Program-made: the position numbers and the translations under genes
Virus record (IMG/VR): IMGVR_UViG_2695420471_000001
DNA: 26,356 nt
Direction: 5' to 3' (one strand)
Origin: a virus
Lineage: Duplodnaviria > Heunggongvirae > Uroviricota > Caudoviricetes
Shown: positions 1 to 25,743 of the stretch, piece by piece
Numbering within the stretch: the stretch's first letter is position 1
How the letters are laid out: each line of letters starts with the position of its first letter
The notes under the pieces: generated by a model
What the model saw: the letters and a program-made list of their open reading frames with translations, nothing else
Database searches by the model: none
What the model was told of the DNA's origin: nothing

Positions 1-18
1 GCGAATTACCGTCTTATA

Positions 19-345
19 TCACTGGCGCTGACACTTCATCACCTCCGGACGTAAATCACCATCCTTTGGTGCATTCAGAAACGCGTTCAGTGTCCCCGGT
101 GCATCAGTCGGTGCCACATCAATATCCCCGACACGGGTTGGCTGCCAGCCGTTACAGTGAAGCGCAACCTCGTAATACCCCGGCTCAGCCTCAATCACAT
201 AAGCACCGTTATTGTCCGTCACGCAAGTGGCAACAACGTGTGCCACAACGGTCGGACTGGTTCTTCTGGCCCGCAGTTCAATCGCACAATTTACGACAGG
301 TTTACCCGCCCCATCTTTCAGTACACCTGAAATCTTTACTGCCAT
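19..345 (-). CDS. stf: Side tail fiber (Stf)-like N-terminal domain protein, short form or truncated
   Basis: Translation from the internal Met reads MAVKISGVLKDGAGKPV..., matching the lambda Stf N-terminus (MAVKISGVLKDGTGKPVQNC...). ATG at 343-345 lies 63 nt downstream of the lom stop, as in lambda. The ORF ends at TGA (19-21) after about 109 aa, where lambda Stf continues; the window edge prevents seeing what follows. Confidence 0.55.
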   Translation of the reverse strand: MAVKISGVLKDGAGKPVVNCAIELRARRTSPTVVAHVVATCVTDNNGAYVIEAEPGYYEVALHCNGWQPTRVGDIDVAPTDAPGTLNAFLNAPKDGDLRPEVMKCQRQ

Positions 346-408
346 ATTCACCCCACAAAAAGCCCGCCTGAACCAGCGGGCAGTCATAACACTGTGTTAC
401 CTGGCTAA

Positions 409-1008
409 TCAGAACTTATAACCGACACCCACGATGAAACCGTCAGTGCGCCAGTCACCACTGCCGGAACCTTCATAAGCAAGGTCAATGGCCACGGATT
501 CGGTCGGGTTAAACTGCACGCCAGCCCCCCACGCCAGAGACGTGTTGCTGTGGCGACCGCCATCACTTCCGGTCAGCACATCGTGCGTTTTCCCCTTGTT
601 GTCAGTTACGCGGAGATAATCCCCGGAGAAGGTCGACACACGGCTGTAAGCCACGCCCGCCATCGCATACGCGCTGAACCATTCATTCACGCGCACAGAC
701 GGCCCCGCCATCACGCTGAACCAGCGGTTACGCACGGAATCCTCATGCCAGCGGGTATCGCTGTAATGCGTTTTTTGCTCATCTTCAGCGTTGGCATAAC
801 TGAATGACGTAATCAGCCCCAGCGTGTCCGTAAACTCATAACGGTATTTCACGTTAATGCCCTTCAGGTCATCGCTGCCTGGCATATCAGTATGGGTCTG
901 AAGATACCCGGCGCTCAGCGTGGACTGATGTTCAGACGCCCATGCAGGCGCACCGGATACGGCCAGACAGATGGCTGCGGACAAAATGGCTGCACAAACT
1001 TTACGCAT
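409..1008 (-). CDS. lom: Lom outer membrane protein (Ail/Lom/OmpX family beta-barrel)
   Basis: 199-aa ORF with signal peptide (MRKVCAAILSAAICLAVSGAPAWA) and near-identity to lambda Lom throughout, ending ...DGFIVGVGYKF. Sits immediately downstream of J as in lambda. Confidence 0.92.
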   Translation of the reverse strand: MRKVCAAILSAAICLAVSGAPAWASEHQSTLSAGYLQTHTDMPGSDDLKGINVKYRYEFTDTLGLITSFSYANAEDEQKTHYSDTRWHEDSVRNRWFSVMAGPSVRVNEWFSAYAMAGVAYSRVSTFSGDYLRVTDNKGKTHDVLTGSDGGRHSNTSLAWGAGVQFNPTESVAIDLAYEGSGSGDWRTDGFIVGVGYKF

Positions 1009-1031
1009 AATTACCTCTCGCTTTTCTGCAA

Positions 1032-1056
1032 TAAAAAAGGCACCATTTCTGGTGCC
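1032..1056 (-). terminator. Rho-independent terminator between J and lom
   Basis: Perfect 7-bp stem ggcacca/tggtgcc (1039-1045 and 1050-1056) with a 4-nt loop, followed on the minus strand by a U-tract (plus-strand aaaaaa at 1033-1038). Confidence 0.5.
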
Positions 1057-1075
1057 CGTATCTGGGTTATAAAAT

Positions 1076-3412
1076 TCAGCTAATCGTGATGCCTGCAGTG
1101 GCTTTCTTCATCACCACAACCAGCAAATCGCTGATACTTGCTGTGGGATACCAGCCATTTACCAGCCATGCCGATACAGAAAACTCCAGCGTCATGTGAC
1201 CGTGACCGGCAGGCATATCAATAACACCCGTATATATCAGCGTATTATCCAGGGTCGTTCGGTTATAAATTTCAGCACCGTTTTTCTTCACTATCAGGCG
1301 GCATGACGAATAAATATTGTTATTCTTCCGCTCATGTTTAGCACCGCGAAACGCCACCGCGGGAATAACAATTTGCCGATCAAACGGCTGATCGTCATAA
1401 ACCCTGACGGTAATGGTCCCTGATGGCCACCTCTCCGGTGCCCGGGAGTCCCGTGGGAAAGGTTTGCCCACTGTTTTAACGAGATCGCCTTCAATCTGGT
1501 TCGCGGACAATTTTCCCAGAACCCGACAGTTCTTATTAATCGTGACGTTGTTGAGCGTCCCGGAGTTCGCGTTCACGTTACCGCTGATATCGGCATTTTT
1601 CGCCGTCAGCCGTCCGCCAGGTGTCAGGGAAAATGCCGGAGGATTACCGCCGCTGGTAATGGTCGGAGCCGTCAGGCATTTCAGGAACACGTCGTTCATG
1701 AATATCTGATCGCCCTGACCAACAAACATCGGCTTTGTGTTGCCATTCGCAGGATTAATCATCGCAATCCTGTCTGCCGCCAGCAGCACCTGACTCTGCA
1801 TTCCTGCTGGCGTATTCTCAATACCGGCACCGATACCCGCAATATAAAGGCGTCCGTCCTTCATCTGTTGCAGCTTCACAGCCCACATGCTGTTCAGGTT
1901 ATTATTTGTATCAACCTGAACTTTCTGTATCTGCTGGATTGCAGCACTCTGATTTTCCAGTTTTTTATTGACGGTTTGCGTGATTTCATTGCTGACATTC
2001 GTAATGGACGTCCTGATTTCAGTCAGGTCCGGCGCAAGCTGACCGTTATCAATCTGCGTCCACAACTCCTTGCCGAGATGCGTTTTATTGATCAACCCTT
2101 TATAAAAATTCAGATAACCTTCTGCATCATCGCTCGCCCGACCGATGGCCTCCACAAATGCCGATTTGCCAACGGTGTTCACACTGCGAACGTAAAAATA
2201 ATAATCATGGCCCGGCCTGATATTGATACTGGCGGCTATCCAGTACAGCGCCGTGCCAAGATAGCGGGCGCTGGTTTCAACCTGCCTGATATCCGCAATC
2301 CGCTTTTCCGAAAACCAGAACTCAAACTGCACCGTCGGGTCATATACAGCCAGTTTCGGGACCGCCGTTATCTGAAAATACCCCGGTATCAGTTCAATAG
2401 TGACAGGCGCTGCCGGTGCCGCAATCCGGAACGATACCGACGCCGGATCGCCCTGCTGCCCCCACGCATTTACTGCCCGGACTGTCAGCCTGTAGTTCCC
2501 CAGCGCCAGTTGTGTGAAGCGGTAAGTGGTTTCCGTCGTCCGGGCCGTGCTGACCAGCCGCTCACTGCCGTCATCCGCTGTTACGGTCAGACGGAGCAGG
2601 AAGCTCACGCCCTTCACCACCTTCGGCGTGTCCCAGCGCGCCAGCACCTGATATTCCCCGCTGTCTGCGGTGACTTCGGCAGTCAGGTGCTGCACCGCTG
2701 GCGGCGTGACACCATTCACCGTGCCGCTCTGGTCGCCGTCAAAGTGCGCCCCGTTATCCACGATGGCTTCTTTTTCCGGCACATGCTGCACGGCGGTGAT
2801 GGCATACGTGCCGTCGTCGTTCTCACGGATACTCACGCAGCGGAACAATCGCTGGTGCAGCGTCGGCAGCTTCAGCCCCCACACGCTGTATTCAGCAACA
2901 CCGTCAGGAACACGGCTCACTTTTACCTTCACGCCGTCGGTGACGGACTGGACCTCCACGCTGACCGGATTCCCCTGCCCGTCAACCAGGCTTATCAGCG
3001 TGGTGCCGGAGGATGGCAGCGTGATTTCACGGTCGAGCGTCAGCGTCCGGGTCTGGCTGTTCACCGCCAGCACGCGCCCGCCGGTGCGGATACCGGCATA
3101 GTCATCATCGCAGATTTCAATGACATCGCCCGGTACATGACGAAGCCCTTCAGCACCCACGCTGAAATCCACGGTCTGCGTCTCCAGCAGTTCCGTTTTA
3201 ATCAGCCACAGCCCGGCGCGGTGTGCCTGCCCCCGGCTGGTACAGCCAAAGGCATCCATCTTCGTGACGTTACGACCGTAACGGACAATGGCCTGCGTAT
3301 CCTCCACAAGCTCTGTCGCCGTCTCCCAGCCGTTATCCGGGTCAATCCAGTTCACCTCAACGGCATTATGGCGGTCTTTCAGGGCGCTGAAACTGTAGCG
3401 GAACGGCGCGCC
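1076..3412 (-). CDS. J: Host specificity protein J (central tail fiber), C-terminal about 778 codons; 5' end runs into an N-gap
   Basis: In-frame continuation of J-like sequence ([22 protein letters not shown]..., repeated fibronectin-like region, ...[35 protein letters not shown]...). Stop at 1076-1078. The N-terminal two thirds are near-identical to lambda J; the last 250 aa or so are recognisably homologous but divergent. Confidence 0.85.
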
Positions 3413-4361
3413 NNNNNNNNNNNGCCCGGACTGTCAGACTGTAATTCCCCAGCGCCAGCTGCCTGAAGCGGTATGTGGTTTCCGTCGTCCTGGCTGTGCT
3501 GACCAGCCGCTCACTGCCGTCGTCCGCTGCCACGGTCAGGCGAAGCAGGAAGCTCACACCCTTCACCACCTTCGGCGTGTCCCATCGCGCCAGCACCTGA
3601 TATTCCCCGCTGTCTGCGGTGACTTCGGCGGTCAGATGCTGCACCGCTGGCGGCGTGACACCATTCACCGTGCCGCGCCGGTCACCGTCAAAGTGTGCCC
3701 CGTTATCCACGATGGCCTCTTTTTCCGGCACATGCTGCACGGCGGTGATGGCATACGTGCCGTCGTCGTTCTCACGGATACTCACGCAGCGGAACAGACG
3801 CTGGCGCAGCGTCGGCAGCTTCAGCCCCCACACGCTGTATTCTGCAACGCCGTCAGGAACCCGGCTCACTTTCACCTTCACGCCGTCGGTGACGGACTGG
3901 ACCTCCACGCTGACCGGATTGCCACTTCCGTCAACCAGGCTTATCAGCGTGGTACCGGAGGACGGCAGCGTGATTTCACGGTCGAGCGTCAGCGTCCGGG
4001 TCTGGCTGTTCACCGCCAGTACGCGACCACCGGTGCTGATACCGGCATAATCATCATCGCAGATTTCAATGACATCACCCGGTACATGGCGAAGCCCTTC
4101 TGCGCCCACGCTGAAGTCCACGGTCTGCGTTTCCAGCAGTTCCGTTTTAATCAGCCACAGCCCGGCTCGGTGTGCCTGCCCCCGGCTGGTACAGCCAAAG
4201 GCATCCATCTTCGTGACATTACGACCGTAACGGGCAATGGCCTGCGTATCCTCCACAAGCTCTGTCGCCGTCTCCCAGCCGTTATCTGGGTCAATCCAGT
4301 TCACCTCAACGGCATTATGGCGGTCCTTCAGGGCGCTGAAGCTGTAGCGGAACGGCGCGCC
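2475..4361. repeat. Two near-identical copies (about 938 bp each) of an internal J segment, flanking the 11-N gap
   Basis: 2475-3412 aligns base-for-base with 3424-4361 apart from scattered SNPs (for example AIVRYGRNV vs AIARYGRNV, DGQGNP vs [18 protein letters not shown] vs RFRQLALGNYSL in translation). Confidence 0.85.
3413..3423. other. Run of 11 N (assembly gap or masked bases)
   Basis: Literal n characters in the sequence; flanked on both sides by J sequence from different positions of the gene. Confidence 0.95.
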
Positions 4362-5504
4362 ATCGTCCGGCATCACCACATTACTGCGGTTATAGGTCCA
4401 CACCTTATCCGACGGTCGGTCCTGCACGAACGTCAGCATCTGTCCGTTCCATACCGGCATACAGCGCATCGCCGAGCAGAAATCACTGAGAACATCCCAC
4501 GCCTTACGCTGTGTGGTCAGGTAAGAGTTACAGGTGATGCGCGGCTCCGTGCCGCCAAATCCGTCCGTCACTGACTGGTCGCAGTACTGGCCGATGACAT
4601 ACAGCGCCCATTTGTCCACATCTGCCGCACCAAGACGTTTCCCCATGCCGTAGCGCGGATGAGTGAGCATGTCCCACAGACACCAGGCCATGTTGTTGCT
4701 GTATGCTGGCTTAAGCGTTCCGTCCCAGATACCGCTGTATTGCCGCGTCTGCGGGTTATAGTTCGACGGCACCTGCAGAATGCGCCCGCGAAGATGATAA
4801 TTGCGACTCACCTGCTGGTTACCGAACTGCTCTGAATCCACCTGCACGCCGACCAGCGCCGTGTTCGGGTAGCACTGTTTCACATCGATGATTTCGGTGT
4901 ATGACGACCAGAGCGTTTTGTTCTGCAGCTGGTCTGTGGTGCTGTCCGGTGTCATCCTGCGCATCCGGATATTAAACGGGCGCGGCGGCAGGTTACCCAC
5001 CACCACCGAGGCCAGATACTGCGAAGTGGTTTTGCCCTTAATGGTGATGTCTTTTTCCGTCACCCAGCCACCGTTACGCTGTATCTGAACCAGCAGGCGG
5101 ACTTCCGACGGATTCCGGTCACCCTTTGAGGTGGTTTCCACCAGTGCCTGCACACCGAAGGTCAGGCGCAGACGGTCGATGTTTGCCGACGTGATGGTCC
5201 GGGTGATCGGCGTGTCATATTTCACTTCCGTACCCAGCACCGTCTCGGAGCCGGAGGATTCAAAACCCTCCGGCGGTGTCTGCTCCTGCTCACCTGCACG
5301 GAACACCACCGTAACACCGGAAAAGTTTGTCTTCCCCTCGCTGTCCAGGACCGGCGTACCGTTCAGCAGCACGCTTTTTAATCCATCCACCGGACCGTCA
5401 ACCGGCCCTTCGCTGATGGCATCAATCACACTCAGCAACTGCGTGGATTTCAGGTTGTCCTTCGCTTCGCGCGGGGTATGCCCCTTACTGCTGCCTTTAC
5501 CCAT
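3424..5504 (-). CDS. J: Host specificity protein J, N-terminal about 693 codons (copy B); 3' end runs into the N-gap
   Basis: ATG at 5502-5504; begins MGKGSSKGHTPREAKDNLKSTQLLSVIDAISEGPV..., near-identical to the lambda J N-terminus. The apparent continuation to a stop at 3366 passes through the N-run and is not real. Confidence 0.85.
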
Positions 5505-5564
5505 TCCTCACGCTCCATAAACGACAAAACCGCCCGCAGGCGGTTTCACATAAAACATTTTGCA

Positions 5565-6206
5565 TCAGCGACCAATCACCACAACCTGACCACCATCCCC
5601 TTCGTCTGCCGTGCTGATCTCCTGAGAAACCACACGTGACCCCACGCGCATTTCACCGTACAGAACGGGCAGAACATTGCCCTGGGCAACCATGTTATCC
5701 AGTGACGAGAAATACGTGTTCTGCTTACCGTTATCCGTTGTCTGTGTACGGGGAGTTCTGGCTTTCGGTGCCAGCATCTGTGCAACACCGCCAAGCGTCA
5801 TACTGGCACCGAGAGAAAACAGCAGATTACTCGCCATAATTCCTACCCCCGGCATCCATATAGCAACCGCCATAACAGCCGCCCCCAGCACCGCCTGAAA
5901 CACACCGCCACTTTTAGCTCCCACCAGACGCGGTACTATGTGGATCACTGCACCATTTGCCAGCGGCTCATTAAGACGGGCAGACAATTCGGTTTCACCT
6001 GCATCACGCCCGGCAATGCGCACCTGATACCAGCCGTCACTCAGTTTCTGACGAAACGCCGGGAGCTGTGTGGCCAGTGCCCGGATGGCTTCAGCCCCCG
6101 TTTTCACACGAAGGTCGATGCGGCGACCAAATCGTTGTAAATCCCCGTAAAGGCAGATGCGCGCCATGCCCGGTGACGCCAGAGGGAGTGTGTGCGTCGC
6201 TGCCAT
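5565..6206 (-). CDS. I: Tail assembly protein I (copy 1, variant with shorter hydrophobic central segment)
   Basis: 213 aa; MAATHTLPLASPGMARICLYGDLQRFGRRIDLRVKTGAEAIRALATQLPAFRQKLSDGWYQVRIAG... matches lambda I. Overlaps the 3' end of K by about 100 nt and lies 60 nt upstream of J, exactly as in lambda. Confidence 0.85.
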   Translation of the reverse strand: MAATHTLPLASPGMARICLYGDLQRFGRRIDLRVKTGAEAIRALATQLPAFRQKLSDGWYQVRIAGRDAGETELSARLNEPLANGAVIHIVPRLVGAKSGGVFQAVLGAAVMAVAIWMPGVGIMASNLLFSLGASMTLGGVAQMLAPKARTPRTQTTDNGKQNTYFSSLDNMVAQGNVLPVLYGEMRVGSRVVSQEISTADEGDGGQVVVIGR

Positions 6207-6847
6207 TTGTCGGTATACCTCTCTCGTTTGCTCAGTTGTTCAGGAATATGGTGCAGCAGCTCGCCGTCACCACAGTAAATGGCGGCATGATTCGGCACCG
6301 ATGAACCAAAACAGCACAGCAGCACATCGCCCGGCTGTGCCTCTGTCAGTGCGACACGGTAAAAACCCGTCACCTCCATATTGTCAAGATAGAGATTCTG
6401 ACCGTTACGCCACCAGTCATCCCCGCGATGAAAATCCGGCATCTCAATCCCTGCCAGATGATAAGCATCCCGGAACAGCGTGTAACAGTCCGTCACCCCG
6501 TGCTCAAAGCGCCGCCCGGTAAGATGTGGCACACAGCGGAACTTGTGAATCGCCCCCCGGCAGACCAGCCACCACGGCAAATCACTCTGCACCTGCAGCC
6601 GCCGGTCAGCCTCACTCAGCCAGGGCAGACCACCGGGATGACTGTGGACCAGCGCCACAATCTCACCCTGCATTTGTGCCCGCAGCCAGTCCTCCGGAGC
6701 CATCCGGAACCGTTCCTCCGGCTCACCGGAGATATTCTCGCTGGGAAGATACCTGTCTCCCTCCGGCGTTCTTACCACGAAGCCACACGACTCCGCTGGC
6801 GCACATCGCCGGGCGTGCGCCAGAATCGCTGATTCTGTCTGTGTCAT
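6104..6847 (-). CDS. K: Tail tip assembly protein K (copy 1; JAMM/MPN plus NlpC/P60 domains)
   Basis: Start set at MTQTESAILAHARRCAPAESCGFVV (ATG 6845-6847), by homology to copy 2; the longer 335-aa track ORF is an upstream extension into L. JAMM motif HSHPGGLPWLSEAD is present. Confidence 0.85.
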   Translation of the reverse strand: MTQTESAILAHARRCAPAESCGFVVRTPEGDRYLPSENISGEPEERFRMAPEDWLRAQMQGEIVALVHSHPGGLPWLSEADRRLQVQSDLPWWLVCRGAIHKFRCVPHLTGRRFEHGVTDCYTLFRDAYHLAGIEMPDFHRGDDWWRNGQNLYLDNMEVTGFYRVALTEAQPGDVLLCCFGSSVPNHAAIYCGDGELLHHIPEQLSKRERYTDKWQRRTHSLWRHRAWRASAFTGIYNDLVAASTFV

Positions 6848-6851
6848 GGAT

Positions 6852-7550
6852 TTACTGAGAAAGTTTATTGATGGAAAGGAAACCGCCGAAATTACCGGTA
6901 TTGTTGCGCAACTCACACCCGCGCATACACTTGCTGCATTTGTCCTTCCGGATATCCGTCGTTGGTTTGTCGAACTCGTCAGCCACTGCCCTGCCCGTGT
7001 AACCACACTCATCAGAACGGTAAGTCCACATACAGGTATTCGCCAGCATGATACGCCCCGGGAAAACCGCGCCATCCGTCTCCGTTGGTGTGGCCAGCAC
7101 AAAAGAGGCACTGACCGCGCTCAGTTCGCTGCACTGCTCGATGCGCCAGCGGCTGATCACCTCCTGTTCCGGATCGGCGTCGCTGTTTCCGTTGACGAAG
7201 TTCACCGCATCCAGAAAACGGGCGTAAACCTTACGCCTGACCACCGTTCCGCCGACCAGACTCTGCAGGTCTTCCGCCATCCCGGTGACCATTCCGTGCA
7301 GGTTAGAAACCGTCAGTGTCGGACGGGCAGCACTGCCCTTGCCGTTCAGTTCAAATCCCGTCCCCTGAATGGGGTATGCCTGATACTGCCGCCCCTGCCA
7401 GGTAACCGGCTCACCTTTTTCGTTCTGCTCATTACAGAAAAAATAACGTTCTCCACCGACCTCTGTCAGATCGATTTCCCAGAGCACCACCTGGGCTGAC
7501 TGAGTGAGGCGTGTCGTCTCATGATGTGTTTCCTGTGGAATATCCTGCAT
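6852..7550 (-). CDS. L: Minor tail protein L (copy 1)
   Basis: 232 aa, same length as lambda L; about 90% identical by eye to copy 2. C-terminal cysteine cluster (DKCSKCMRGC) consistent with the Fe-S site described for gpL. Confidence 0.88.
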   Translation of the reverse strand: MQDIPQETHHETTRLTQSAQVVLWEIDLTEVGGERYFFCNEQNEKGEPVTWQGRQYQAYPIQGTGFELNGKGSAARPTLTVSNLHGMVTGMAEDLQSLVGGTVVRRKVYARFLDAVNFVNGNSDADPEQEVISRWRIEQCSELSAVSASFVLATPTETDGAVFPGRIMLANTCMWTYRSDECGYTGRAVADEFDKPTTDIRKDKCSKCMRGCELRNNTGNFGGFLSINKLSQ

Positions 7551-7559
7551 CAGAGCCTC

Positions 7560-7889
7560 CTATGCCACGACCTGTTCAAAATCTGCCGTTATGGTTACCC
7601 ACAACGCCCCCACGCTTGCCGACCATTTACGACAAACCACCCTGATCGGCTTCCAGTCATAAGGTGGCGTCCACTGAAATGCGCGGACGCCACCGTGCCG
7701 TTCCAGAAAGGCTTTTAAAAATGGGTGTTCACCTTTACGAACACGTATCTTCACGCTGTAAGTCGACAACTGGTTATTCAGTCCCGCCGCACGACGCTGT
7801 TCATAACCATCGCCCAGCTTCACTGTCACCACTTTCGGCTCTGATACCACATTCATATCCGGGCGCACTTTCCAGTGAAACGTCTCCAT
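7560..7889 (-). CDS. M: Minor tail protein M (copy 1, divergent allele)
   Basis: 109 aa, same length and position as lambda M but only about 50% identical by eye to copy 2 (METFHWKVRPDMNVVSEP... vs MKTFRWKVKPGMDVASAP...). Confidence 0.8.
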   Translation of the reverse strand: METFHWKVRPDMNVVSEPKVVTVKLGDGYEQRRAAGLNNQLSTYSVKIRVRKGEHPFLKAFLERHGGVRAFQWTPPYDWKPIRVVCRKWSASVGALWVTITADFEQVVA

Positions 7890-8228
7890 TACCGGTATGC
7901 TCCACTTAACCGGCCACCATCACGGGCCTGCTGTTGCATAAAGTCCGCGGCCGCTTTTTTCCCGAGGTCATAAACCACCTTCAGGGCAGCCGGACCTATC
8001 TGCCCGTTCGTGCCATCGTTATTGATCTCAATGTTGTACTGCGGGGCAAACATCACCATGCCTGAACCACCAGTATCCGCCACACCCCCCAGCTTACCAT
8101 CAGCACCGCGACGCAGTGGCAGAATGGCTTCAGGTCCCGCTTCCCCCATCACACCCGCGCCTTTTGCAAAAGCAAAAAACGTCGGACGGTTAACCACCGT
8201 GCCACTGTAGCGACTCAAATCAGCAGAC
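7889..8228 (-). pseudogene. H: Tape measure protein H, 3' fragment only (C-terminal 110 codons or so), truncated at an IS junction
   Basis: Translation ...YNIEINNDGTNGQIGPAALKVVYDLGKKAAADFMQQQARDGGRLSGAYR aligns with the lambda H C-terminus (...NHVVIQNDGTNGLPGPQMMKAVYDMARKGARDEIQTQMRDGGLFSGGGR). Its stop overlaps the M start. Upstream the reading frame runs into IS-like sequence and hits a stop; no H N-terminus is present. Confidence 0.7.
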
Positions 8229-8353
8229 TGAGGTAGCCTGAGTTTAACGGACACTCCTTCCTGAAATAGAATGGCATCAGAAGGAGCTAATAATGAGCAG
8301 AAAAACCCAACGTTACTCTAAAGAGTTCAAAGCCGAAGCTGTCAGAACGGTTC
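8229..8353 (+). mobile_element. IS3-family insertion sequence, left end only (putative inverted repeat plus first 20 codons of orfA); possibly IS600-like
   Basis: Good RBS (aaggag) then ATG at 8293 encoding MSRKTQRYSKEFKAEAVRTV, a typical IS3-family OrfA N-terminus (HTH region). Upstream sequence begins tgaggtagcctgagtttaacgg, consistent with a TG-initiated terminal inverted repeat. The element is cut off by NNN at 8354. The left boundary is approximate (about +/-10 bp). Confidence 0.6.
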
Positions 8354-8356
8354 NNN
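8354..8356. other. Run of 3 N at the IS/J junction
   Basis: Literal nnn; IS orfA sequence on one side, internal J sequence (minus strand) on the other. Confidence 0.95.
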
Positions 8357-9749
8357 TCCAGCAGTTCCGTTTTAATCAGCCACAGCCCGGCGCGGTGTGC
8401 CTGCCCCCGGCTGGTACAGCCAAAGGCATCCATCTTCGTGACGTTACGACCGTAACGGACAATGGCCTGCGTATCCTCCACAAGCTCTGTCGCCGTCTCC
8501 CAGCCGTTATCCGGGTCAATCCAGTTCACCTCAACGGCATTATGGCGGTCTTTCAGGGCGCTGAAACTGTAGCGGAACGGCGCGCCATCATCCGGCATCA
8601 CCACATTACTGCGGTTATAGGCCCACACCTTATCCGACTGTCGGTCCTGCACGAACGTCAGCGTCTGCCCGTTCCATACCGGCATACAGCGCATCGCCGA
8701 GCAGAAATCACTGAGCACATCCCACGCCTTGCGCTGTGTGGTCAGCCAGGCATTACAGGTGATGCGCGGCTCCGTGCTGCCAAAGCCGTCCGGCACCGAC
8801 TGGTCACAGTACTGGCCGATGACATACAGCGCCCATTTATCCACATCTGCCGCACCAAGACGTTTCCCCATGCCATAGCGCGGATGGGTCAGCATATCCC
8901 ACAGACACCAGGCCATGTTGTTGCTGTATGCCGGTTTTAACGTTCCGTCCCAGATACCGCTGTATTGCCGCGTCTGCGGNNNNNNNNNNNNNNNNNNNNN
9001 TTATAGTTCGACGGCACCTGCAGAATGCGCCCGCGAAGATGATAATTGCGACTCACCTGCTGGTTACCGAACTGCTCTGAATCCACCTGCACGCCGACCA
9101 GCGCCGTGTTCGGGTAGCACTGTTTCACATCGATGATTTCGGTGTATGACGACCAGAGCGTTTTGTTCTGCAGCTGGTCTGTGGTGCTGTCCGGTGTCAT
9201 CCTGCGCATCCGGATATTAAACGGGCGCGGCGGCAGGTTACCCACCACCACCGAGGCCAGATACTGCGAAGTGGTTTTGCCCTTAATGGTGATGTCTTTT
9301 TCCGTCACCCAGCCACCGTTACGCTGTATCTGAACCAGCAGGCGAACTTCAGACGGATTCCTGTCTCCCTTTGAGGTGGTTTCCACCAGTGCCTGTACAC
9401 CGAAGGTAAAACGCAGTCGGTCAATGTTTGCCGACGTGATGGTCCGGGTGATCGGCGTGTCATATTTCACTTCCGTACCCAGCACCGTCTCGGAGCCGGA
9501 GGATTCAAATCCCTCCGGCGGTGACTGCTCCTGCTCACCTGCCCGGAACACCACCGTGACGCCGGAGATGTTGGTATTCCCCTCACTGTCCAGCACCGGC
9601 GTACTGTTCAGCAGCACGCTTTTTAATCCATCCACCGGACCTTCAACCGGCCCTTCGCTGATGGCATCGATCACACTCAGCAGCTGCGTGGACTTCAGGT
9701 TGTCCTTCGCTTCGCGCGGGGTATGCCCCTTACTGCTGCCTTTACCCAT
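8357..9749 (-). CDS. J: Host specificity protein J, N-terminal about 465 codons (copy C), interrupted by a 21-N run at 8980-9000 and ending at the IS junction
   Basis: ATG at 9747-9749; MGKGSSKGHTPREAKDNLKSTQLL... It follows I (copy 2) after the same 60-nt spacer as lambda. About 98% identical to copy B with scattered substitutions (VEGPVDG vs VDGPVDG, NSTPVLDSEGNTNISG vs NGTPVLDSEGKTNFSG). The frame is broken by the N-run, which replaces 1 nt with 21 N. Confidence 0.85.
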
Positions 9750-9809
9750 TCGTCATGCTCCATAAACGATAAAACCGCCCGGAGGCGATTTCACATAAAA
9801 CATTTTGCA

Positions 9810-10481
9810 TCAGCGACCAATCACCACAACCTGACCACCGTCCCCTTCGTCTGCCGTGCTGATCTCCTGAGATACCACACGTGACCCCACGCGCATTTCA
9901 CCATACAGAACAGGCATAACATTGCCCTGGGCAACCATGTTATCCAGTGAGGAGAAATAGGTGTTCTGCTTACCGTTATCCGTTGTCTGTGTGCGGGGAG
10001 TTCTGGCTTTCGGTGCCAGCATCTGAGCCACACCGCCGAGCACCATACTGGCACCGAGAGAAAACAGAATGCCGGTCATACCACCGGCACCAATGGCAGC
10101 CCCCCATGCTGCAAGGGTGGCTCCGGCGGTAAAGAATGATCCGGCAATGGCGGCTGCTCCCAGGACAATCTGGAATACACCACCTGACTTGGCCCCGGCG
10201 ACTCTGGGAACAATATGAATCACAGCGCCGTCAGGCAGAGCCTCATGTAACTGTGCCGTTAATCCGGACGTGCTAACATCCTGCCCGGCAATACGCACCT
10301 GATACCAGCCGTCGCTCAGCTTCTGACGAAACGCAGGGAGCTGTGTGGCCATCGCCCGGATGGCTTCGGCACCCGTTTTCACACGAAGGTCGATGCGGCG
10401 GCCAAATCGTTGCAAATCCCCGTAAAGGCAGATGCGTGCCATGCCCGGTGACGCCAGAGGGAGTGTGTGCGTCGCTGCCAT
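9810..10481 (-). CDS. I: Tail assembly protein I (copy 2, lambda-type)
   Basis: 223 aa, the lambda I length, with near-identity to lambda I including the Gly/Ala-rich hydrophobic segment. Confidence 0.93.
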   Translation of the reverse strand: MAATHTLPLASPGMARICLYGDLQRFGRRIDLRVKTGAEAIRAMATQLPAFRQKLSDGWYQVRIAGQDVSTSGLTAQLHEALPDGAVIHIVPRVAGAKSGGVFQIVLGAAAIAGSFFTAGATLAAWGAAIGAGGMTGILFSLGASMVLGGVAQMLAPKARTPRTQTTDNGKQNTYFSSLDNMVAQGNVMPVLYGEMRVGSRVVSQEISTADEGDGGQVVVIGR

Positions 10482-11122
10482 TTGTCGGTATACCTCTCTC
10501 GTTTGCTCAGTTGTTCAGGAATATGGTGCAGCAGCTCGCCGTCACCACAGTAAATGGCGGCATGATTCGGCACCGATGAACCAAAACAGCACAGCAGCAC
10601 ATCGCCCGGCTGCGCCGCTGACAACGGCACCTGATACAGCCCTGTGGCCTCCAGATTATCCAGATAGAGATTCTGACCGTGACGCCACCAGTCATCCTCA
10701 CGATGAAAATCCGGCATCTCAATCCCCGCCAGATGGTAAGCATCCCGGAACAGCGTGTAACAGTCCGTCACCCCGTGCTCAAAGCGCCGCCCGGTAAGAT
10801 GTGGCACACAGCGGAACTTGTGAATCGCCCCCCGGCAGACCAGCCACCACGGCAAATCACTCTGCACCTGCAGCCGCCGGTCGGCCTCACTCAGCCAGGG
10901 CAGACCACCGGGGTGGCTGTGGACCAGTGCCACAATCTCACCCTGCATCTCTGCCTGCAGCCAGTCTTCCGGCGACATACGGAAATACGCCTCCGGCTCA
11001 CCGGAGATATTCACGCAGGGGAAATATCTTTCCCCCTCCGGCGTTCTTACCACGAAGCCGCACGACTCCGCTGGAGCACATCGCCGGGCGTGCGCCAGAA
11101 TCGCTGATTCTGTCTCTGTCAT
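10379..11122 (-). CDS. K: Tail tip assembly protein K (copy 2; JAMM/MPN plus NlpC/P60)
   Basis: 247-aa ORF starting 6 nt after the L stop (MTETESAILAHARRCAPAESCGFVV...). An internal Met at codon 49 (MSPEDWLQAEMQ...) would give a 199-aa product. Contains the JAMM motif HSHPGGLPWLSEAD and a Cys/His pair (DCYTLF...HAAIY) typical of NlpC/P60. Confidence 0.9.
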   Translation of the reverse strand: MTETESAILAHARRCAPAESCGFVVRTPEGERYFPCVNISGEPEAYFRMSPEDWLQAEMQGEIVALVHSHPGGLPWLSEADRRLQVQSDLPWWLVCRGAIHKFRCVPHLTGRRFEHGVTDCYTLFRDAYHLAGIEMPDFHREDDWWRHGQNLYLDNLEATGLYQVPLSAAQPGDVLLCCFGSSVPNHAAIYCGDGELLHHIPEQLSKRERYTDKWQRRTHSLWRHRAWHASAFTGICNDLAAASTFV

Positions 11123-11127
11123 GGGAT

Positions 11128-11826
11128 TTACTGCGAAAGTTTGTTAATGGAAAGGAAGCCGCCAAAGTTGCCGACGTTATTGCGAAACTTACAGCCACTC
11201 AGGCATTTGCTGCATTTATCCTTCGTGATGTCGGACGTTGGCTGGTCATATTCATCCGCGACCGCCGGACCGTGATAACCGCACTCATCGCCGCGATAGG
11301 TCCAGGTGCAGGTGTTGGCCAGCATGATACGTCCCGGAAAAACAGCGCCATCTGTTTCCGTCGGCGTGGACAGTACAAAAGAGGCACTCACCGCGCTCAG
11401 TTCGCTGCACTGCTCAATGCGCCAGCGGCTGATCACCTCCTGCTCCGGATCGGCGTCACTGTTTCCGTTGACGAAGTTCACCGCATCCAGAAAACGGGCG
11501 TAAACCTTACGCCGGACCACCGTTCCGCCGACCAGACTCTGTAGATCTTCCGCCATCCCGGTGACCATACCGTACAGGTTAGAAACCATCAGCGTGGGGC
11601 GCGTACTGGTGCCTTTGCCATTCAGTTCAAAACCACTCCCCTGAATGGGATACGGCTGATACTGTCGCCCCTGCCAGGTGACCGGCTCACCTTTTTCGTT
11701 CTGCTCATTACAGAAAAAATAACGTTCTCCACCGACCTCTGTCAGATCGATTTCCCAGAGCACCACGCTGGCCGACTGCTCCGCACGGGTGCATTCATTC
11801 AGTGTTTCCTGCCGGATATCCTGCAT
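11128..11826 (-). CDS. L: Minor tail protein L (copy 2)
   Basis: 232 aa, identical in length and near-identical in sequence to lambda L. Confidence 0.93.
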   Translation of the reverse strand: MQDIRQETLNECTRAEQSASVVLWEIDLTEVGGERYFFCNEQNEKGEPVTWQGRQYQPYPIQGSGFELNGKGTSTRPTLMVSNLYGMVTGMAEDLQSLVGGTVVRRKVYARFLDAVNFVNGNSDADPEQEVISRWRIEQCSELSAVSASFVLSTPTETDGAVFPGRIMLANTCTWTYRGDECGYHGPAVADEYDQPTSDITKDKCSKCLSGCKFRNNVGNFGGFLSINKLSQ

Positions 11827-12155
11827 CAGTTCACCACCTGTTCAAACTCTGCGCTGAACTCAACACGCAGCATACTGACCCGCGACGACCATTTTGCGCA
11901 GGTCACCTTTATCTGCCGCCACTCATAAGGCGGCGTCCACAGAAAGGCTTTCCAGCCCCCGTGCTCTTCCAGAAACGACTCCAGTACCATGGCCTCCTCA
12001 CGGGGGACAGAAAGCGTCACGCTGTACGTTTTCAGGTTGGCATTCAGCCCGGCAGGCGCTCGCTGGGAATAGCCATCACCAAAGCGCACCTTTCTTACAG
12101 AAGGGGCCGAAGCCACATCCATACCGGGTTTCACTTTCCAGCGGAAGGTTTTCAT
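11826..12155 (-). CDS. M: Minor tail protein M (copy 2)
   Basis: 109 aa; start overlaps the H stop (ATGA-type overlap), as in lambda. Confidence 0.93.
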   Translation of the reverse strand: MKTFRWKVKPGMDVASAPSVRKVRFGDGYSQRAPAGLNANLKTYSVTLSVPREEAMVLESFLEEHGGWKAFLWTPPYEWRQIKVTCAKWSSRVSMLRVEFSAEFEQVVN

Positions 12156-14713
12156 CGTCCACCTCCGGAGAACAGGCCACCATCACGCATCTGTGTCTGA
12201 ATTTCATCACGGGCACCCTTGCGGGCCATGTCATACACGGCCTTCATCATCTGTGGACCTGGCAGACCATTCGTACCGTCGTTCTGAATCACCACGTGAT
12301 TGTTCTGATTAAAATTAATGCCTTCAGCCCGCCGCATCTGCGCCGGACTTCCGGCACCGCCCACATAACCACCTTCCGCATAGCCGCGCATCAGCCGGTA
12401 GAGATTCCCCACGCCAATCCGGCTGGTTGCCTCCTTCGTGAAGACAAATTCACCACGGTGAACAATCCCCGCTGGCTCATATTTGCCGCCGGTTCCCGTA
12501 AATCCCCCGGTTGCAAAATGGAATTTCACCGCAGCGGCCTGAATGGCTGTACCACCTGACGCGGATGCGCCGCCACCAACAGCCCCGCCAATGGCGCTGC
12601 CGATACTCCCGACAATCCCCACCATTGCCTGCTTAAGCAGAATTTCTGTCATCATGGACAGCACGGAGCGGGTGAAGCTGCGCCAGTTCTGTTCACTGCC
12701 GGTCAGCATCGCCGCCATATTCTGTGCAATACCATCAAAGGTCTGCGTGGCTGCACTTTTAACCTGTGACATACTGTCCGTGGCGCTCTCTTCCCACTCA
12801 CTCCAGCCGGACTTCAGGCCTGCCATCCAGCTCCCGCGAAGCTGGTCTTCAGCCGCCCAGGTCTTTTTCTGCTCTGACATGACGTTATTCAGCGCCAGAG
12901 GATTATCGCCATACTGTTCCTTCAGGCGCTGTTCCGTGGCTTCCCGCGCTGCCTGCCGGTCAGTCAGCCCCCGGTTTTTCGCATCAATGGCTGCCCGTTT
13001 TGCCCGTTGCTGCTGTGCGAATTTATCCGCCTGCTGCGCCAGCGCATTCAGGTGCTCCTGATACGTAACCTTGTCACCAAGTGCAGCCAGCTGGCGTTTG
13101 TACTCCAGCGTCTCGTCTTTATGCGCCAGCAGGGATTTCTCCTGTGCGGACAGCTGGCGACGTTGTGCCGCCTCCTCCAGTACCGCGAACTGACTTTCTG
13201 CCTTCCACAAATCCCGGCGCTGCTGGCTGATTTTCTCATTCGCTCCGGCATGCTTCTCCAGCGTCCGGAGTTCTGCCTGAAGCGTCAGCAGGGCCGCATG
13301 AGCACTGTCTTCCTGACGATCGCCCGCATACACCTTCACGCCGGACTGTTTCGGCTTTTTCAGCGTCGCTTCATAATCCTTTTTCGCCGCCGCCATCAGC
13401 GTGTTGTAATCTGCCTGCAGGATTTTTCCGTCTTTCAGTGCCTTGTTCAGTTCTTCCTGACGGGCGGTATATTTCTCCAGCGGCGTCTGCAGCCGTTCGT
13501 AAGCCTTCTGCGCCTCTTCGGTATATTTCAGCCGTGACGCTTCGGTATCGCTCTGCTGCTGCGCATTTTTGTCCTGTTGACGCTGTTGATCTACCCTCTT
13601 TTGGGCTGCATCCCGCTCCAGGCGTTTTTTTTCACGATCATCCCAGTAACGCGCCCGTGCTTCATCGTTAACGAAATAATCATCCTTGCGCAGATTCCAG
13701 ATGTCGTCTGCTTTCTTAAACGCAGCCTCTGCCTTAATCAGCATCTCCTGCGCGGTATCAGGACGACCAATATCCAGCACCGCATCCCACATGGATTTGA
13801 ATGCACGTGCAGTCCTGTCTGCCCAGGTCTCCAGCGTGCCCATGTTCTCTTTCAGGCGGCGGGTCTGGTCATCAAACCCTTTCGTTGCGGCCTCGTTCGC
13901 CGCCTGCAATGCCCCGGCTTCATCGCCGGAACGCTGCAACTGAGCAACATACGCAATCTGCTCCGCCGTCACGTTATGGAACTGGCGTGCCATCGCCGTC
14001 AGCCCCGACGTCGGGTCTGTGGTCAGCTTCCCGAAGGCTTCAGCGACCTTGTCCACCTCCACGCCGGATGCATAGGAGAAACGCGCCACACTCTGGCTGA
14101 TGGACGCAATCTGAGCCTCACCGCTTACCCCCGCCTTAACCAGTGCGCTGAGTGACTCGCTGGTCTGGTTAAACGTCAGCCCTGCCGCCTGCCCGGCTCT
14201 GGACAGGACCAGCATACGATCTGCCGTCAGTCCCGCCTGATTACCGGAAAGGACCAGCGTTTTGTTGAAATCGGACAGGGTTGAGTTGCCCTGATACCAG
14301 GCATACGCCAGCGCACCGGTCGCCACCGCCAGCGAGGTGGCCCCCACCATCGGCAGGGTGATCGCGCCGGCAAGCCCCCTGAACATGGGGATCATCCCGC
14401 CGAAGGAGTCCTTAACCTGACCACCCTGTTGCAGCAGGATCAGCCAGGGATTCTGCCCCCCTGCAAGCTGCGTGGCCACGTCGGTGAACTGTGCAGGCAG
14501 CATACGCATGGCGGCTTTATACTGCCCGACGGAAATCCCCGCTTTCTGTGCAGCCAGCGCCTGTCGGCTCAGCGACTGTTCAACGACTGCCGCTGTTTTT
14601 TTCGCATCACTTTCCGTACCGGAAAAATGACGCCTGACTCTGGCCATCTGCTCGTCAAATCTGGCCGCATCCAGACTCAAATCAACGACCAGATCGCCTA
14701 CCGGTTCAGCCAT
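12152..14713 (-). CDS. H: Tail tape measure protein H
   Basis: 853 aa, the lambda H length; long coiled-coil-rich middle region; C-terminus ...VIQNDGTNGLPGPQMMKAVYDMARKGARDEIQTQMRDGGLFSGGGR. Start overlaps the end of the T frame. Confidence 0.95.
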   Translation of the reverse strand: MAEPVGDLVVDLSLDAARFDEQMARVRRHFSGTESDAKKTAAVVEQSLSRQALAAQKAGISVGQYKAAMRMLPAQFTDVATQLAGGQNPWLILLQQGGQVKDSFGGMIPMFRGLAGAITLPMVGATSLAVATGALAYAWYQGNSTLSDFNKTLVLSGNQAGLTADRMLVLSRAGQAAGLTFNQTSESLSALVKAGVSGEAQIASISQSVARFSYASGVEVDKVAEAFGKLTTDPTSGLTAMARQFHNVTAEQIAYVAQLQRSGDEAGALQAANEAATKGFDDQTRRLKENMGTLETWADRTARAFKSMWDAVLDIGRPDTAQEMLIKAEAAFKKADDIWNLRKDDYFVNDEARARYWDDREKKRLERDAAQKRVDQQRQQDKNAQQQSDTEASRLKYTEEAQKAYERLQTPLEKYTARQEELNKALKDGKILQADYNTLMAAAKKDYEATLKKPKQSGVKVYAGDRQEDSAHAALLTLQAELRTLEKHAGANEKISQQRRDLWKAESQFAVLEEAAQRRQLSAQEKSLLAHKDETLEYKRQLAALGDKVTYQEHLNALAQQADKFAQQQRAKRAAIDAKNRGLTDRQAAREATEQRLKEQYGDNPLALNNVMSEQKKTWAAEDQLRGSWMAGLKSGWSEWEESATDSMSQVKSAATQTFDGIAQNMAAMLTGSEQNWRSFTRSVLSMMTEILLKQAMVGIVGSIGSAIGGAVGGGASASGGTAIQAAAVKFHFATGGFTGTGGKYEPAGIVHRGEFVFTKEATSRIGVGNLYRLMRGYAEGGYVGGAGSPAQMRRAEGINFNQNNHVVIQNDGTNGLPGPQMMKAVYDMARKGARDEIQTQMRDGGLFSGGGR

Positions 14714-15544
14714 ACCGGACTCCTCCTGCGATCCCTTCTGATACTGTCATCAGCATTACGTCATCCTCCGTCATGTCCGCCACATCCGGGGAAGCGGGGA
14801 TAACTTCATTCCCGTCCGGGCCAAAGCGGACACCTCCGGCAAGCCCTGCCGCTTTCTGCATCAGCACATCATCTTCAGGCTCTTCGTCAGCCTCGCGCCG
14901 GTTCAGCAGACTGAAATCCAGCGGATGCATCTCCGGATCGCTGAAAAACAGGCTGAGCACGGTGTACGTCAGCCCGGAAAAGTGCATATCCAGCAGAACA
15001 TCATGAAAATAATGGGTACTGTAAAAGCGGTGCCAGTCGGCATACTCCGTGGATGACATCCCGGCAAGCATGGCGCGCCAGTCGGGTCGCCCCATCTCAC
15101 GCGCCAGTTTCAGGGCAAAACTCAGCTCACCGTCGAACACTTTCCCGCAGAAACAGGCTCTGCAGGCCCGGCGTCCTCTGCCTGTTCAGGAGCATCATTC
15201 ACCACAAACTCATACATACCGGACAGCCGGTACACCACGTTTTCAGCATGAGAAATTGCCTCTGTGGGCCAGGTGGTAAGCACTTCCTGCTCAATCTGTT
15301 TAACGGCTTCATTCATGGACGGCATCTGCGTCTTCTTCGGATGGTTATGCCACAGGGACATCGCAACCACAAAAGCGCCGGTTCTGATGGCGTCTTCCAC
15401 AGTAAACTTCCGGTTGCTGTCTGACTCCGCCTGTTCTGCCTGCCGTTTCATCAGGTCGAGATGCTCAATACGCTGCAGGGCTGACAGTTCAGAAAGCGTG
15501 ACGGTCACACCGTTATGTTCAAATGATTCGGTTTTCAGGAACAT
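14706..15544 (-). CDS. T: Tail assembly chaperone G-T fusion, made by programmed -1 ribosomal frameshift
   Basis: The T reading frame (14706-15140) has no start of its own and lies -1 relative to G. The slippery heptamer G GGA AAG sits in the G frame at codons ...AGK, 6 codons before the G stop. After the slip the reading is ...GKVFDGELSFALKLAREMG..., matching lambda gpGT. Confidence 0.85.
15122..15544 (-). CDS. G: Tail assembly chaperone G
   Basis: 140 aa, MFLKTESFEHNGVTVTLSELSALQRIEHL...; same length as lambda G; stop TGA at 15122-15124. Confidence 0.93.
   Translation of the reverse strand: MFLKTESFEHNGVTVTLSELSALQRIEHLDLMKRQAEQAESDSNRKFTVEDAIRTGAFVVAMSLWHNHPKKTQMPSMNEAVKQIEQEVLTTWPTEAISHAENVVYRLSGMYEFVVNDAPEQAEDAGPAEPVSAGKCSTVS
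15140..15146 (-). promoter_or_regulatory. -1 frameshift slippery heptanucleotide GGGAAAG (G to G-T)
   Basis: Plus-strand ctttccc at 15140-15146 is the reverse complement of GGGAAAG, positioned in the G frame as G GGA AAG (same motif and position as in lambda). Confidence 0.8.
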
Positions 15545-15559
15545 CGCTGACTCTCCGGA

Positions 15560-16300
15560 TTAACTGGCGGTGACGTTGATTTCTGCAACCGCAGCAAACT
15601 CACCATTACCAGATACGACCGGAATGTTGACCTTGCCTGCAGCAACACCTTTCACGGTGATGGTCATACCACTGACCGACACGGTGGCTTTTGTTTTATC
15701 CGCAGACACCGCACGGAAGCTCTTGTCGGTTGCGCCATCCGGCTGGAATGCCACGGTCAGCGTGGTGCTCTGCCCTTTCACTACGGAAGCACTGGCGGGT
15801 GTCACCGTCATGCCGGTCGTCGCCGTCACCGTGCTGCGATCTTCTGCCATCGACGGACGTCCCACATTGGTGACCTTCACCGTGCGGGTAATCACCTCCT
15901 TCGCCGTCACCGCCTTACCGATACTGCTGACCCAGCCACGGAACACATCGACCGTGCCGTTCGGGAAGCGGATTTTATAGGCACGGGTATCACCTTCATT
16001 AAACCACGCCAGCAGCGCCTGCTGCCCCTGCTCTCCGGGCATCCACGCCAGCGTGAAGCTGGTATCTCCGGCAGATTTCTGCCCCTGCCCGGTCGCAGTC
16101 CAGTCTGCATCTTCATCATCGAGATAGCTGTCGTCATAGGACTCAGCGGTCAGTTCGCCGGGCGTCAGGTCTTTAACTTTTGCCAGACGCGACCAGTCAA
16201 CGTCTGAAAGCGGGTTCGCATAAGGGTCACCGCTCCCCTTATAAACCCACAGGGTGGTCCCGGCACCTTTCACCGGCATTGTAGGATTTGGTACAGGCAT
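15560..16300 (-). CDS. V: Major tail tube protein V (with C-terminal Ig-like domain)
   Basis: 246 aa from ATG at 16298-16300 ([36 protein letters not shown]...). The track ORF starts 10 codons upstream at a weaker start. C-terminal [23 protein letters not shown]... is Big_2-like. Confidence 0.93.
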
Positions 16301-16307
16301 AGCGTCC

Positions 16308-16703
16308 TCACATTTCATAGATAATGACATAAGTCAGATCGGCTGAACTCCACAGGCCCGCATCATCGTCGCGCCGGTAGTCATAGCCGCTGGCCACCAT
16401 ACTGGTGATCAAATCTGACAGTGCCGGGATATCGCTCATCACAGGATAAATCCGGGACTCCATCCACGAATCCAGCTCTGAATCCGGCACCTGAGCAGGC
16501 AGGAAAACTTCAATATGCAGCTCCGCCTGCCAGGTATCGCTGTCCAGCTCTTCGCCCGTGTATTCAGCGCCGGTGAGATAAACGGCAATTGCCGGAAAAT
16601 CTTCCTCATCAAAAACAGCGGGGCGACCATCAAAAAGCGTCGCCCCGGTGTCATGCTTCTCCAGTGCATCCAGTACGGCTGCACGGAGTTCAGTATGTTT
16701 CAT
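16308..16703 (-). CDS. U: Tail terminator protein U
   Basis: 131 aa, [50 protein letters not shown]..., near-identical to lambda U. Confidence 0.93.
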
Positions 16704-17278
16704 CGCTTTATTACCATTCTCAGTTGATGCTGCAGCGCATAGCCCAGCTCTTTCGGAAGACGTTCACGCCGTATCCGTTCAATATTCTGTTTAAACGCCG
16801 TGGTCAGCGGCACCGCCATCGGGATTTTCACCACATCAATGGGGTAACGGTTTTTCCCGGCCACACGCTGCATAACATGCCACCGGCCGTTTTTCAGTTG
16901 CTGAATAAACGCGCCGGGAATACGACGGTTACCCACCACAAGCACGCTGCCGCCACCTTTCAGGGATGAACGCTGCCCCTTTTTATGACGCCTGCGGCGG
17001 GACAGGACAACCCGCGCATTACCCAGCTTGATTACGGGCAAATCCCCCCGGTTAACTTTGATTCTGGCCTGCGGATTTTTGACCGTGGCCCTTTTCAGCC
17101 TGGCCCTTTCCTTTACCAGTTTCCGGCGTACCTTTGTCTCACGGGCAACCTGTGACGCAGACTGCGATATCGCGGATGAAGCAACGCGGTTAATGGCCAT
17201 TGCGGCGGCACCGGGCACCGCCGTTTTGCTGATACGGCTGAGGTTTTCAACGGCCTGCTCAAGACCTTTTATGGCCAT
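16700..17278 (-). CDS. Z: Tail completion protein Z
   Basis: 192 aa, MAIKGLEQAVENLSRISKTAVPGAAAMAINRVASSAISQ...; 4-nt overlap with U. Confidence 0.93.
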   Translation of the reverse strand: MAIKGLEQAVENLSRISKTAVPGAAAMAINRVASSAISQSASQVARETKVRRKLVKERARLKRATVKNPQARIKVNRGDLPVIKLGNARVVLSRRRRHKKGQRSSLKGGGSVLVVGNRRIPGAFIQQLKNGRWHVMQRVAGKNRYPIDVVKIPMAVPLTTAFKQNIERIRRERLPKELGYALQHQLRMVIKR

Positions 17279-17289
17279 ACATCCCCCTT

Positions 17290-17643
17290 TCAGCGGCGAC
17301 GGTTAACGGCAGGCGGTACGCCCCGTCCAAGCCAGAGATGACAACTTCCGCCATCATCCGGCGAAACCCGATCTACCCAGAAATTTTCCTCACCGATGGT
17401 CAGCGTGTCTCCACGCCGCAGCTGCCGCACCTCATCAGTCCGGACAAACAGGGACGGGCTGGAGCCTTCAACGCGCACGCCCTGTCCGGCATAGCTGATA
17501 TTTTCAGGGTCATCAAAAACACCACGTATCACCGCACCTGACTGCTCACCGGATGTCATGGTGGCTGACGTTCCCATGTACCCGCGTATCGTTTCATCGG
17601 CGCGGGCAATGGCAGCATCGAACAGGTTATCGAAATCAGCCAC
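17290..17643 (-). CDS. FII: Head-tail joining protein FII
   Basis: 117 aa with a GTG start (plus-strand cac at 17641-17643); translation MADFDNLFDAAIARADETIRGYMGTSATMTSGEQSG... matches lambda FII. Confidence 0.92.
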   Translation of the reverse strand: MADFDNLFDAAIARADETIRGYMGTSATMTSGEQSGAVIRGVFDDPENISYAGQGVRVEGSSPSLFVRTDEVRQLRRGDTLTIGEENFWVDRVSPDDGGSCHLWLGRGVPPAVNRRR

Positions 17644-17654
17644 AGCGCCTCCCG

Positions 17655-18053
17655 TTATTGCATTCTGGCCAGGCCGCGCTCTGTCATTTCGGCTGCCACA
17701 CCGGCAGAGACACGAAACGCCGTTCCCGGCAGCACAAATGCCACAGGTTTATCCCGCGTGGCGTGAAGTGCATCAGTATGCAGCGTCACCAGTGCCACGA
17801 CCGTGACCAGTTCAGCCGTATCCTGAATCACGGTATCCGGCTGCGCTGATACCACCTCATTTTCATGCCCGGTCAGCACATTTTCCCGGCTGAGAGGGGT
17901 GTCCTGACCGGCAGTTTCATCCGTGTCATCAAGCTCTTCTTCCAGCTCTGCCACACGAAGCGCCAGTTCTTCTTTCGTTCCCGTCAAACTGACATCGCGG
18001 TTCAATTGCTCACCCAGCTCCTGAAGACGGGCAATCAGTTCATCTTTCGTCAT
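17655..18053 (-). CDS. FI: DNA packaging/head completion protein FI
   Basis: ATG at 18051-18053 gives MTKDELIARLQELGEQLNRDVSLTGTKEELALRVAELEEELDDTDETAG... (132 aa), matching lambda FI. The track ORF begins 13 codons upstream. Confidence 0.9.
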   Translation of the reverse strand: MTKDELIARLQELGEQLNRDVSLTGTKEELALRVAELEEELDDTDETAGQDTPLSRENVLTGHENEVVSAQPDTVIQDTAELVTVVALVTLHTDALHATRDKPVAFVLPGTAFRVSAGVAAEMTERGLARMQ

Positions 18054-18094
18054 GAACTCCTCCACAGAGAGAAAATGGCCCCGAAGGGCCATGA

Positions 18095-19120: not shown

Positions 19121-19130
19121 AAAAAAATCC

Positions 19131-19157
19131 CGTAAAAAAAGCCACACAGGCGGCCTT
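19131..19157 (-). terminator. Terminator-like hairpin with U-tract in the D-E spacer (possible attenuator)
   Basis: Minus strand reads aaaggccgcctgtgtggcttttttt: a 5-bp stem (with one G-U pair) and 4-nt loop followed by seven U, located between the D stop (19176) and the E start (19120). Confidence 0.4.
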
Positions 19158-19175
19158 TAGTGATGAAGGGTAAAG

Positions 19176-19508
19176 TTAAACGATGCTGATTGCCGTTCCG
19201 GCAAACACGGTCCGTTTTTTCGTCTCGTCGCTGGCAGCCTCCGGCCAGAGCACATCCTCATAACGGAACGTGCCGGACTTGTAGAACGTCAGTGTGGTGC
19301 TGGTCTGGTCAGCAGCAACCGCAAGAATGCCAACGGCAGCACCGTCGGTGGTGCCATCCCACGCAACCAGCTTACGGGTGGAGGTGTCCAGCATCAGCGG
19401 GGTCATTGCAGGCGCTTTCGCACTCAATCCGCCGGGCGCGGTTGCGGTATGAGCCGGGTCACTATTGCCCAGCGGCTGGTAATGGGTAAAGGTTTCTTTG
19501 CTCGTCAT
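19176..19508 (-). CDS. D: Head decoration protein D
   Basis: [110 protein letters not shown], 110 aa; starts 9 nt after the C stop as in lambda. Confidence 0.95.
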
Positions 19509-19517
19509 AAACATCCC

Positions 19518-20817: not shown

Positions 20818-20837
<20 letters not shown>
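19518..20837 (-). CDS. C: Capsid assembly protease C (S49/ClpP-like)
   Basis: Start placed at GTG (plus-strand cac 20835-20837) giving (M)TAELRNLPHIASMAFNEPLMLEPAYARVFF..., 439 codons, overlapping the end of B by 20 nt exactly as lambda C does. The track ORF extends 45 codons further upstream inside B. Confidence 0.85.
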
Positions 20838-24518
<3,681 letters not shown>

Positions 24519-24544
<26 letters not shown>

Positions 24545-25300: not shown

Positions 25301-25452
25301 ATCATCTACATGTCACAACGTGCATCTACGCCATCAAACCACGTCAAATAATCAATTATGACGCAGGTATCGTATTAATTGATCTGCATCAACTTAACGT
25401 AAAAACAACTTCAGACAATACAAATCAGCGACACTGAATACAGGGCAACCTC

Positions 25453-25686: not shown

Positions 25687-25743
25687 AGCAATTTAGATAA
25701 TCGTGCAGACTACGCCCCCTCATATCACATGGAAGGTACTACA

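Follow-up and report, generated by a model that had tools for sequence, protein, structure and literature searches.

An IS600 stump against a tape-measure gene remnant of a probably deletion-derived Shigella sonnei prophage, and its false scaffold join to a J gene

Introduction

When the 3′ end of a lambdoid tail tape-measure gene stands directly against the first nucleotides of an insertion sequence (IS), and both break off at a run of Ns beyond which the middle of a J gene begins, it has to be asked whether the IS broke the gene, whether it fused the gene to J, or whether the parts are true neighbors at all. The window examined here, the whole stretch of 26,356 nt that was analyzed, raises this question at 7889-8356. 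IS600 (IS3 family, IS3 group) was first described from Shigella sonnei and normally makes 3-bp target duplications, and IS600-driven prophage decay in Shigella is well established. A study of IS-driven genome degradation in Shigella (Hawkey et al. 2020, PMC7373316), whose main text uses the word 'prophage' 0 times, counts IS600 among five IS families that have expanded in every Shigella species and are linked to gene loss. The finding, we conclude, combines familiar, unremarkable biology with an artefact of assembly: taking the explanation as a whole, the structure is very probably a stump of IS600 lying against the tape-measure end of a dead prophage, with an assembly error added.

The junction and its parts

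The window is the reverse complement of a Shigella sonnei draft scaffold (CXAW01000054.1 of GCA_001254155.1, 26,356 bp). N runs lie at 3413-3423, 8354-8356 and 8980-9000, and the scaffold was split at these into pieces A (1-3412), B (3424-8353), C (8357-8979) and D (9001-26356). The features around the junction are as follows.

7560-7889, minus strand: M gene, directly downstream of H′
7889-8228, minus strand: H′, what remains of a lambdoid tail tape-measure gene: its final 340 nt (112 codons plus stop)
7889-8254, minus strand: hybrid ORF of 121 aa, from the ORF list
8226-8228: GAC, the 3 bp adjoining the IS600 left end, a putative target-site duplication if the IS had simply inserted
8229-8353, plus strand: IS600 nt 1-125, at 100% nucleotide identity
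8229-8254: IS600 left inverted repeat, TGAGGTAGCCTGAGTTTAACGGACAC, with its TG end
8244-8272, plus strand: promoter-like site upstream of orfA, IS600's own and the sole such site in the promoter scan
8281-8286, plus strand: ribosome-binding site (RBS) AAGGAG, 6 nt ahead of the ATG at 8293
8293-8352, plus strand: orfA codons 1-20, encoding MSRKTQRYSKEFKAEAVRTV; the ORF enters the NNN at 8354
8354-8356: NNN, a false scaffold join of the contig ending in IS600 to a J contig of a different prophage
8357-8979, minus strand: internal J fragment, about nt 751-1373 of 3498

By nucleotide match, the element at 8229-8353 is IS600, of the IS3 family. Its 125 nt, which start TGAGGTAGCC, match the IS600 left end throughout (125/125, E = 4e-58), the matches being E. 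coli RefSeq elements annotated 'IS3-like element IS600 family transposase', and a search of the window found no further IS600 sequence in the rest of it. The reference IS600 (L001 2501-3764) is 1264 bp long with TG...CA ends, beginning with the same left repeat and ending ...GTGTCCGCTATTGCCAGTACACCTCA; the right repeat (TGAGGTGTACTGGCAATAGCGGACAC on the other strand) lies outside the window and was seen only in this reference copy, which is flanked by a 3-bp duplication, CGC/CGC. The full reference element carries HTH_Tnp_1 and rve domains and orfA/orfB, with the RefSeq annotation 'programmed frameshift'. The window shares with it the left inverted repeat, the RBS and the orfA start, but holds only nt 1-125; its part of orfA/orfB is orfA codons 1-20, and the frameshift and the DDE region lie outside.

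The parent H gene is about 3.04 kb long (3041 nt in the prophage of E. coli FDAARGOS_944). Homology to the intact tape-measure gene spans from the stop at 7889 to 8228, and the TG at 8229-8230 is common to H and IS600. Both the 340 nt of H′ and the M gene are 99.4-99.6% identical to the FDAARGOS_944 prophage, where H′ corresponds to the 3′ end of the tape-measure gene I6H01_RS24630. No Pfam domain was found in H′, the TMP_2 and Tape_meas_lam_C domains of full-length gpH not being retained, and G/T and the 5′ 2.7 kb of H are absent beside it (upstream of M). From its coding content, H′ is a pseudogene fragment. A duplication of the complete lambda-type H at 12152-14713 was considered as its origin and rejected: the two share no nucleotide similarity longer than 17 nt, and their amino-acid identity at the C-terminus is about 40%.

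An earlier note, made from the letters of the window, had read much of this correctly. Its IS3-family left end (a TG repeat, a strong RBS and an orfA start, with about 125 bp before the 3-N run) proved exact to the base; the IS600-like identity that it suggested agrees with the match of all 125 nt to the RefSeq-annotated elements; its statement that H survives only as a 3′ end is borne out by the last 112 codons; and its guess of a Shigella background was right, since the window is an S. sonnei draft contig whose junction ORF carries only S. sonnei names.

The junction in other genomes

The hybrid ORF takes its GTG start and first 9 codons from the antisense strand of the IS600 left inverted repeat, and the rest from H′. 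Its exact 121-aa sequence is that of SSON_1768 (Q3Z1A8_SHISS), 'tail length tape measure protein [Shigella sonnei]'. The identical protein, to which only S. sonnei names are attached, is present on 440 contigs. Among the sequences with the exact ORF is CP000038.1, the genome of S. sonnei Ss046, alongside several chromosome-size contigs. Piece B (3424-8353) is 99.86% identical to Ss046, and the window does not differ from the SSON_1768 locus at the junction itself; the difference is that the IS breaks off in the window after 125 nt. The junction of H′ and IS600 was spanned in none of the 5,426 complete E. coli genomes searched, the best coverage being 85%, for H and M only, and a scan of the GTDB species representatives, where Shigella is probably not separate, gave 0 matches to the 41-nt junction string.

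The junction at 7889-8353 is very probably, within the explanation as a whole, real and fixed in S. sonnei. It is also already known, its ORF being annotated in Ss046 as SSON_1768; the data bibliography of PMC6562246 dates the deposition of the Ss046 reference genome to 2004. The junction ORF has stood in its annotation from deposition on, and there is nothing new here. The promoter scan found no minus-strand promoter facing outward that could express the hybrid ORF, and nothing in the sequence suggests that this ORF would be expressed.

What lies beyond nt 125 of the IS in this isolate we infer from other S. sonnei assemblies, which differ among themselves. In Ss046 (locus L008), as in loci L004, L005, L007, L010 and L012, the IS600 at H′ comprises only nt 1 to about 480 (479-482). 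This stump runs straight into nt 1, the left end, of a second IS600 oriented the same way (head-to-tail). Most assemblies have that second copy complete (nt 1-1264); in Ss046 and L004 it lacks an internal stretch (about nt 795-969). L003 has a shorter stump, nt 1-255 (L003 9772-10026, against L008 9545-10026). The joints read H′...CAGAC/TGAGGTAGCC on the side of H′, ...AACAAAG/TGAGGTAGCC between the stump and the second copy, and ...CACCTCA/CACTCTATCC where the second copy meets the far flank, the slash marking the boundary. In the finished genomes, then, the copy at H′ is a non-autonomous 5′ stump without target duplication, unlike the full 1264-bp reference. The outer flanks in Ss046 are GAC vs. 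CAC, so that neither copy, nor the pair as a unit, has a target-site duplication, and the internal junction also lacks one. A missing duplication is expected after deletion or rearrangement; it argues against a simple insertion, not against the identity of the element as IS600.

Beyond the IS600 pair lie four clustered tRNA genes, downstream of a DUF1133 (Q-like) gene, with ybcO/DUF1367, hok, IS1 copies and an integrase further out. These genes mark the far flank as a lambdoid prophage's early-right end.

A different neighbor was observed in L010 (UDSB01000042.1, GCA_900485255.1; 8284-10026), where the second IS600 adjoins not the Q/tRNA region but a truncated cse1 of a type I-E CRISPR-Cas locus (cysJIH-cas3-cse1), a sign that IS600 may have rearranged the chromosome of that strain.

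Loss of the late genes

In E. coli FDAARGOS_944 a single prophage matches both flanks of the IS600 pair (98.6% for the Q/tRNA side and 99.4% for H′), and there the two lie 15,108 bp apart. That prophage has no IS600 at this place and keeps 15.1 kb of lysis, head and tail genes; the 15,108-bp interval holds the holin, lysozyme, Rz, terminase, portal, protease/capsid and tail tube genes, G, T and nt 1-2699 of the 3041 of H. The distance between the flanks therefore indicates that S. sonnei has lost the lysis and head genes and most of the tail genes, the first 2.7 kb of H among them; the size of this deletion, about 15.1 kb, assumes an ancestral prophage like that of FDAARGOS_944.

Downstream of H′ the remnant keeps the tail-tip genes M, L, K, I and J (1159 aa) and lom as intact ORFs. 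These lie at 409-7889 of the window (minus strand) and at L008 10366-17703, in Illumina-based and reference assemblies alike, and persist though every gene needed for a virion around them is lost.

The join to J

The two sides of the NNN are not true neighbors. Piece C is 100% identical to L013 11384-12006, which lies within the intact 1165-aa J of a complete lambda-like prophage, and only 94.9% identical to the J downstream of H′. Piece D is 99.9% identical to the same prophage, in which J is intact and is followed by lom and tail-fiber genes. In the 4.82-Mb contig JBEAAD010000003.1 (GCA_040188945.1) this J, that of the module at 9001-26356 (module 2), and H′ are about 680 kb apart.

Within the scaffold, 8357-8586 is identical to 3183-3412 over 230 nt, and this overlap between pieces C and A means that B, with H′ and IS600, was placed wrongly between two pieces of J. 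Piece A itself is chimeric between two J genes: its first ~950 nt (from 3412 down to ~2450) are module-2 J, with at most 1 mismatch to L013, and what follows is the J of the remnant, with zero mismatches to L008. The 11-N run at 3413-3423 is also a false join. Across it J is ~938 bp too long (712 + 778 aa vs. 1159 aa in Ss046), because the first ~950 nt of A come from the J of the other prophage. At 8980-9000, 21 Ns stand for 1 base (L013 11382 is followed by 11384), so the lengths of the N runs in this scaffold carry no size information.

The false join arose from near-identical J segments together with a multicopy IS. A contig of unique sequence built from short reads would reach only 125 nt into such an IS, and the scaffolder would then have misplaced it. 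The earlier note had taken the IS, as a multicopy repeat, for an assembly breakpoint, and the contig does end inside IS600. It had also described a jump into mid-J on the opposite strand; J sequence is indeed found there on the minus strand, but the adjacency is a false join.

It follows for the use of this record that its N runs of 3, 11 and 21 bases represent neither real adjacency nor real gap size, and that reading gene order across them leads to false conclusions, of which 'tandem tail modules' and 'an IS next to J' are examples.

Discussion

The plainest account of an IS beside a truncated gene is a simple insertion of IS600 into an otherwise intact H, in which case a full IS600, GAC and then H (TGGTAAACACC) would lie beyond the end of the contig. 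The boundary between H and IS600 is clean and falls at the IS terminus TG, and the reference copy has a 3-bp duplication (CGC), as an insertion of this kind would leave. Every long assembly with the exact junction ORF, however, shows the stump, the second IS600 and non-H DNA, with no duplication, and the missing 5′ part of H, 2.7 kb, found no match among the loci compared, including 20 kb around the Ss046 junction. We consider this account very improbable. Hardly less so is a real adjacency, in which IS600-mediated recombination would have fused H′ to a truncated J of the other prophage, leaving the remainder of IS600 concealed in the NNN. IS600 does mediate rearrangement, and the pair in L010 adjoins the cas locus; moreover L006 (CXBT01000039.1), apparently from the same project as the window to judge by accession style and N-run joins, shows the same succession, from a fragment of J through a complete IS600 to H′. 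That order was rejected as support for a real fusion, L006 having single-N joins both at the J/IS600 boundary (8762) and inside J (7795), with J duplicated across the latter. Against a real adjacency there are also the J sequence supposedly missing, which is present in the same scaffold, the 230 identical bases by which it overlaps the contig end, the intact module-2 J of complete genomes, and the meaninglessness of N lengths where 21 Ns are 1 nt.

We therefore favor, with high confidence in the explanation taken as a whole, an IS-bounded deletion remnant and not a gene broken by a simple insertion. The proposal in the earlier note that an IS insertion inactivated H holds in so far as IS600 stands beside a truncated H, but not beyond that: the element is followed by a second IS600 and then by the Q/tRNA region, and about 15.1 kb is missing, by comparison with FDAARGOS_944. 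The target-site duplication for which the note had advised a search was not found in Ss046.

The likeliest history would begin with two IS600 insertions, one in H and the other either within that first element or close to the tRNA cluster. From a terminus of the second copy, a deletion would then have taken out the intervening DNA together with two-thirds of the first copy, on its 3′ side. Alternatively, IS600 copies may have recombined with each other; the sequence fits both routes. The outcome would be a non-inducible remnant with the order Q region - IS600 pair - H′-M-L-K-I-J-lom.

The stumps of different length (479-482 nt vs. 255 nt, in few assemblies) each end at the left terminus of the second copy. 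It is conceivable, though we think it unlikely, that this left end has repeatedly produced nested adjacent deletions and acts as a live, lineage-marking deletion hotspot.

The J segment of L006 (7798-8761), which adjoins the right end of IS600 across a single N, is 98.3% identical to module-2 J and 94% identical to the J of the remnant, and may be a third S. sonnei copy of J, truncated by IS600.
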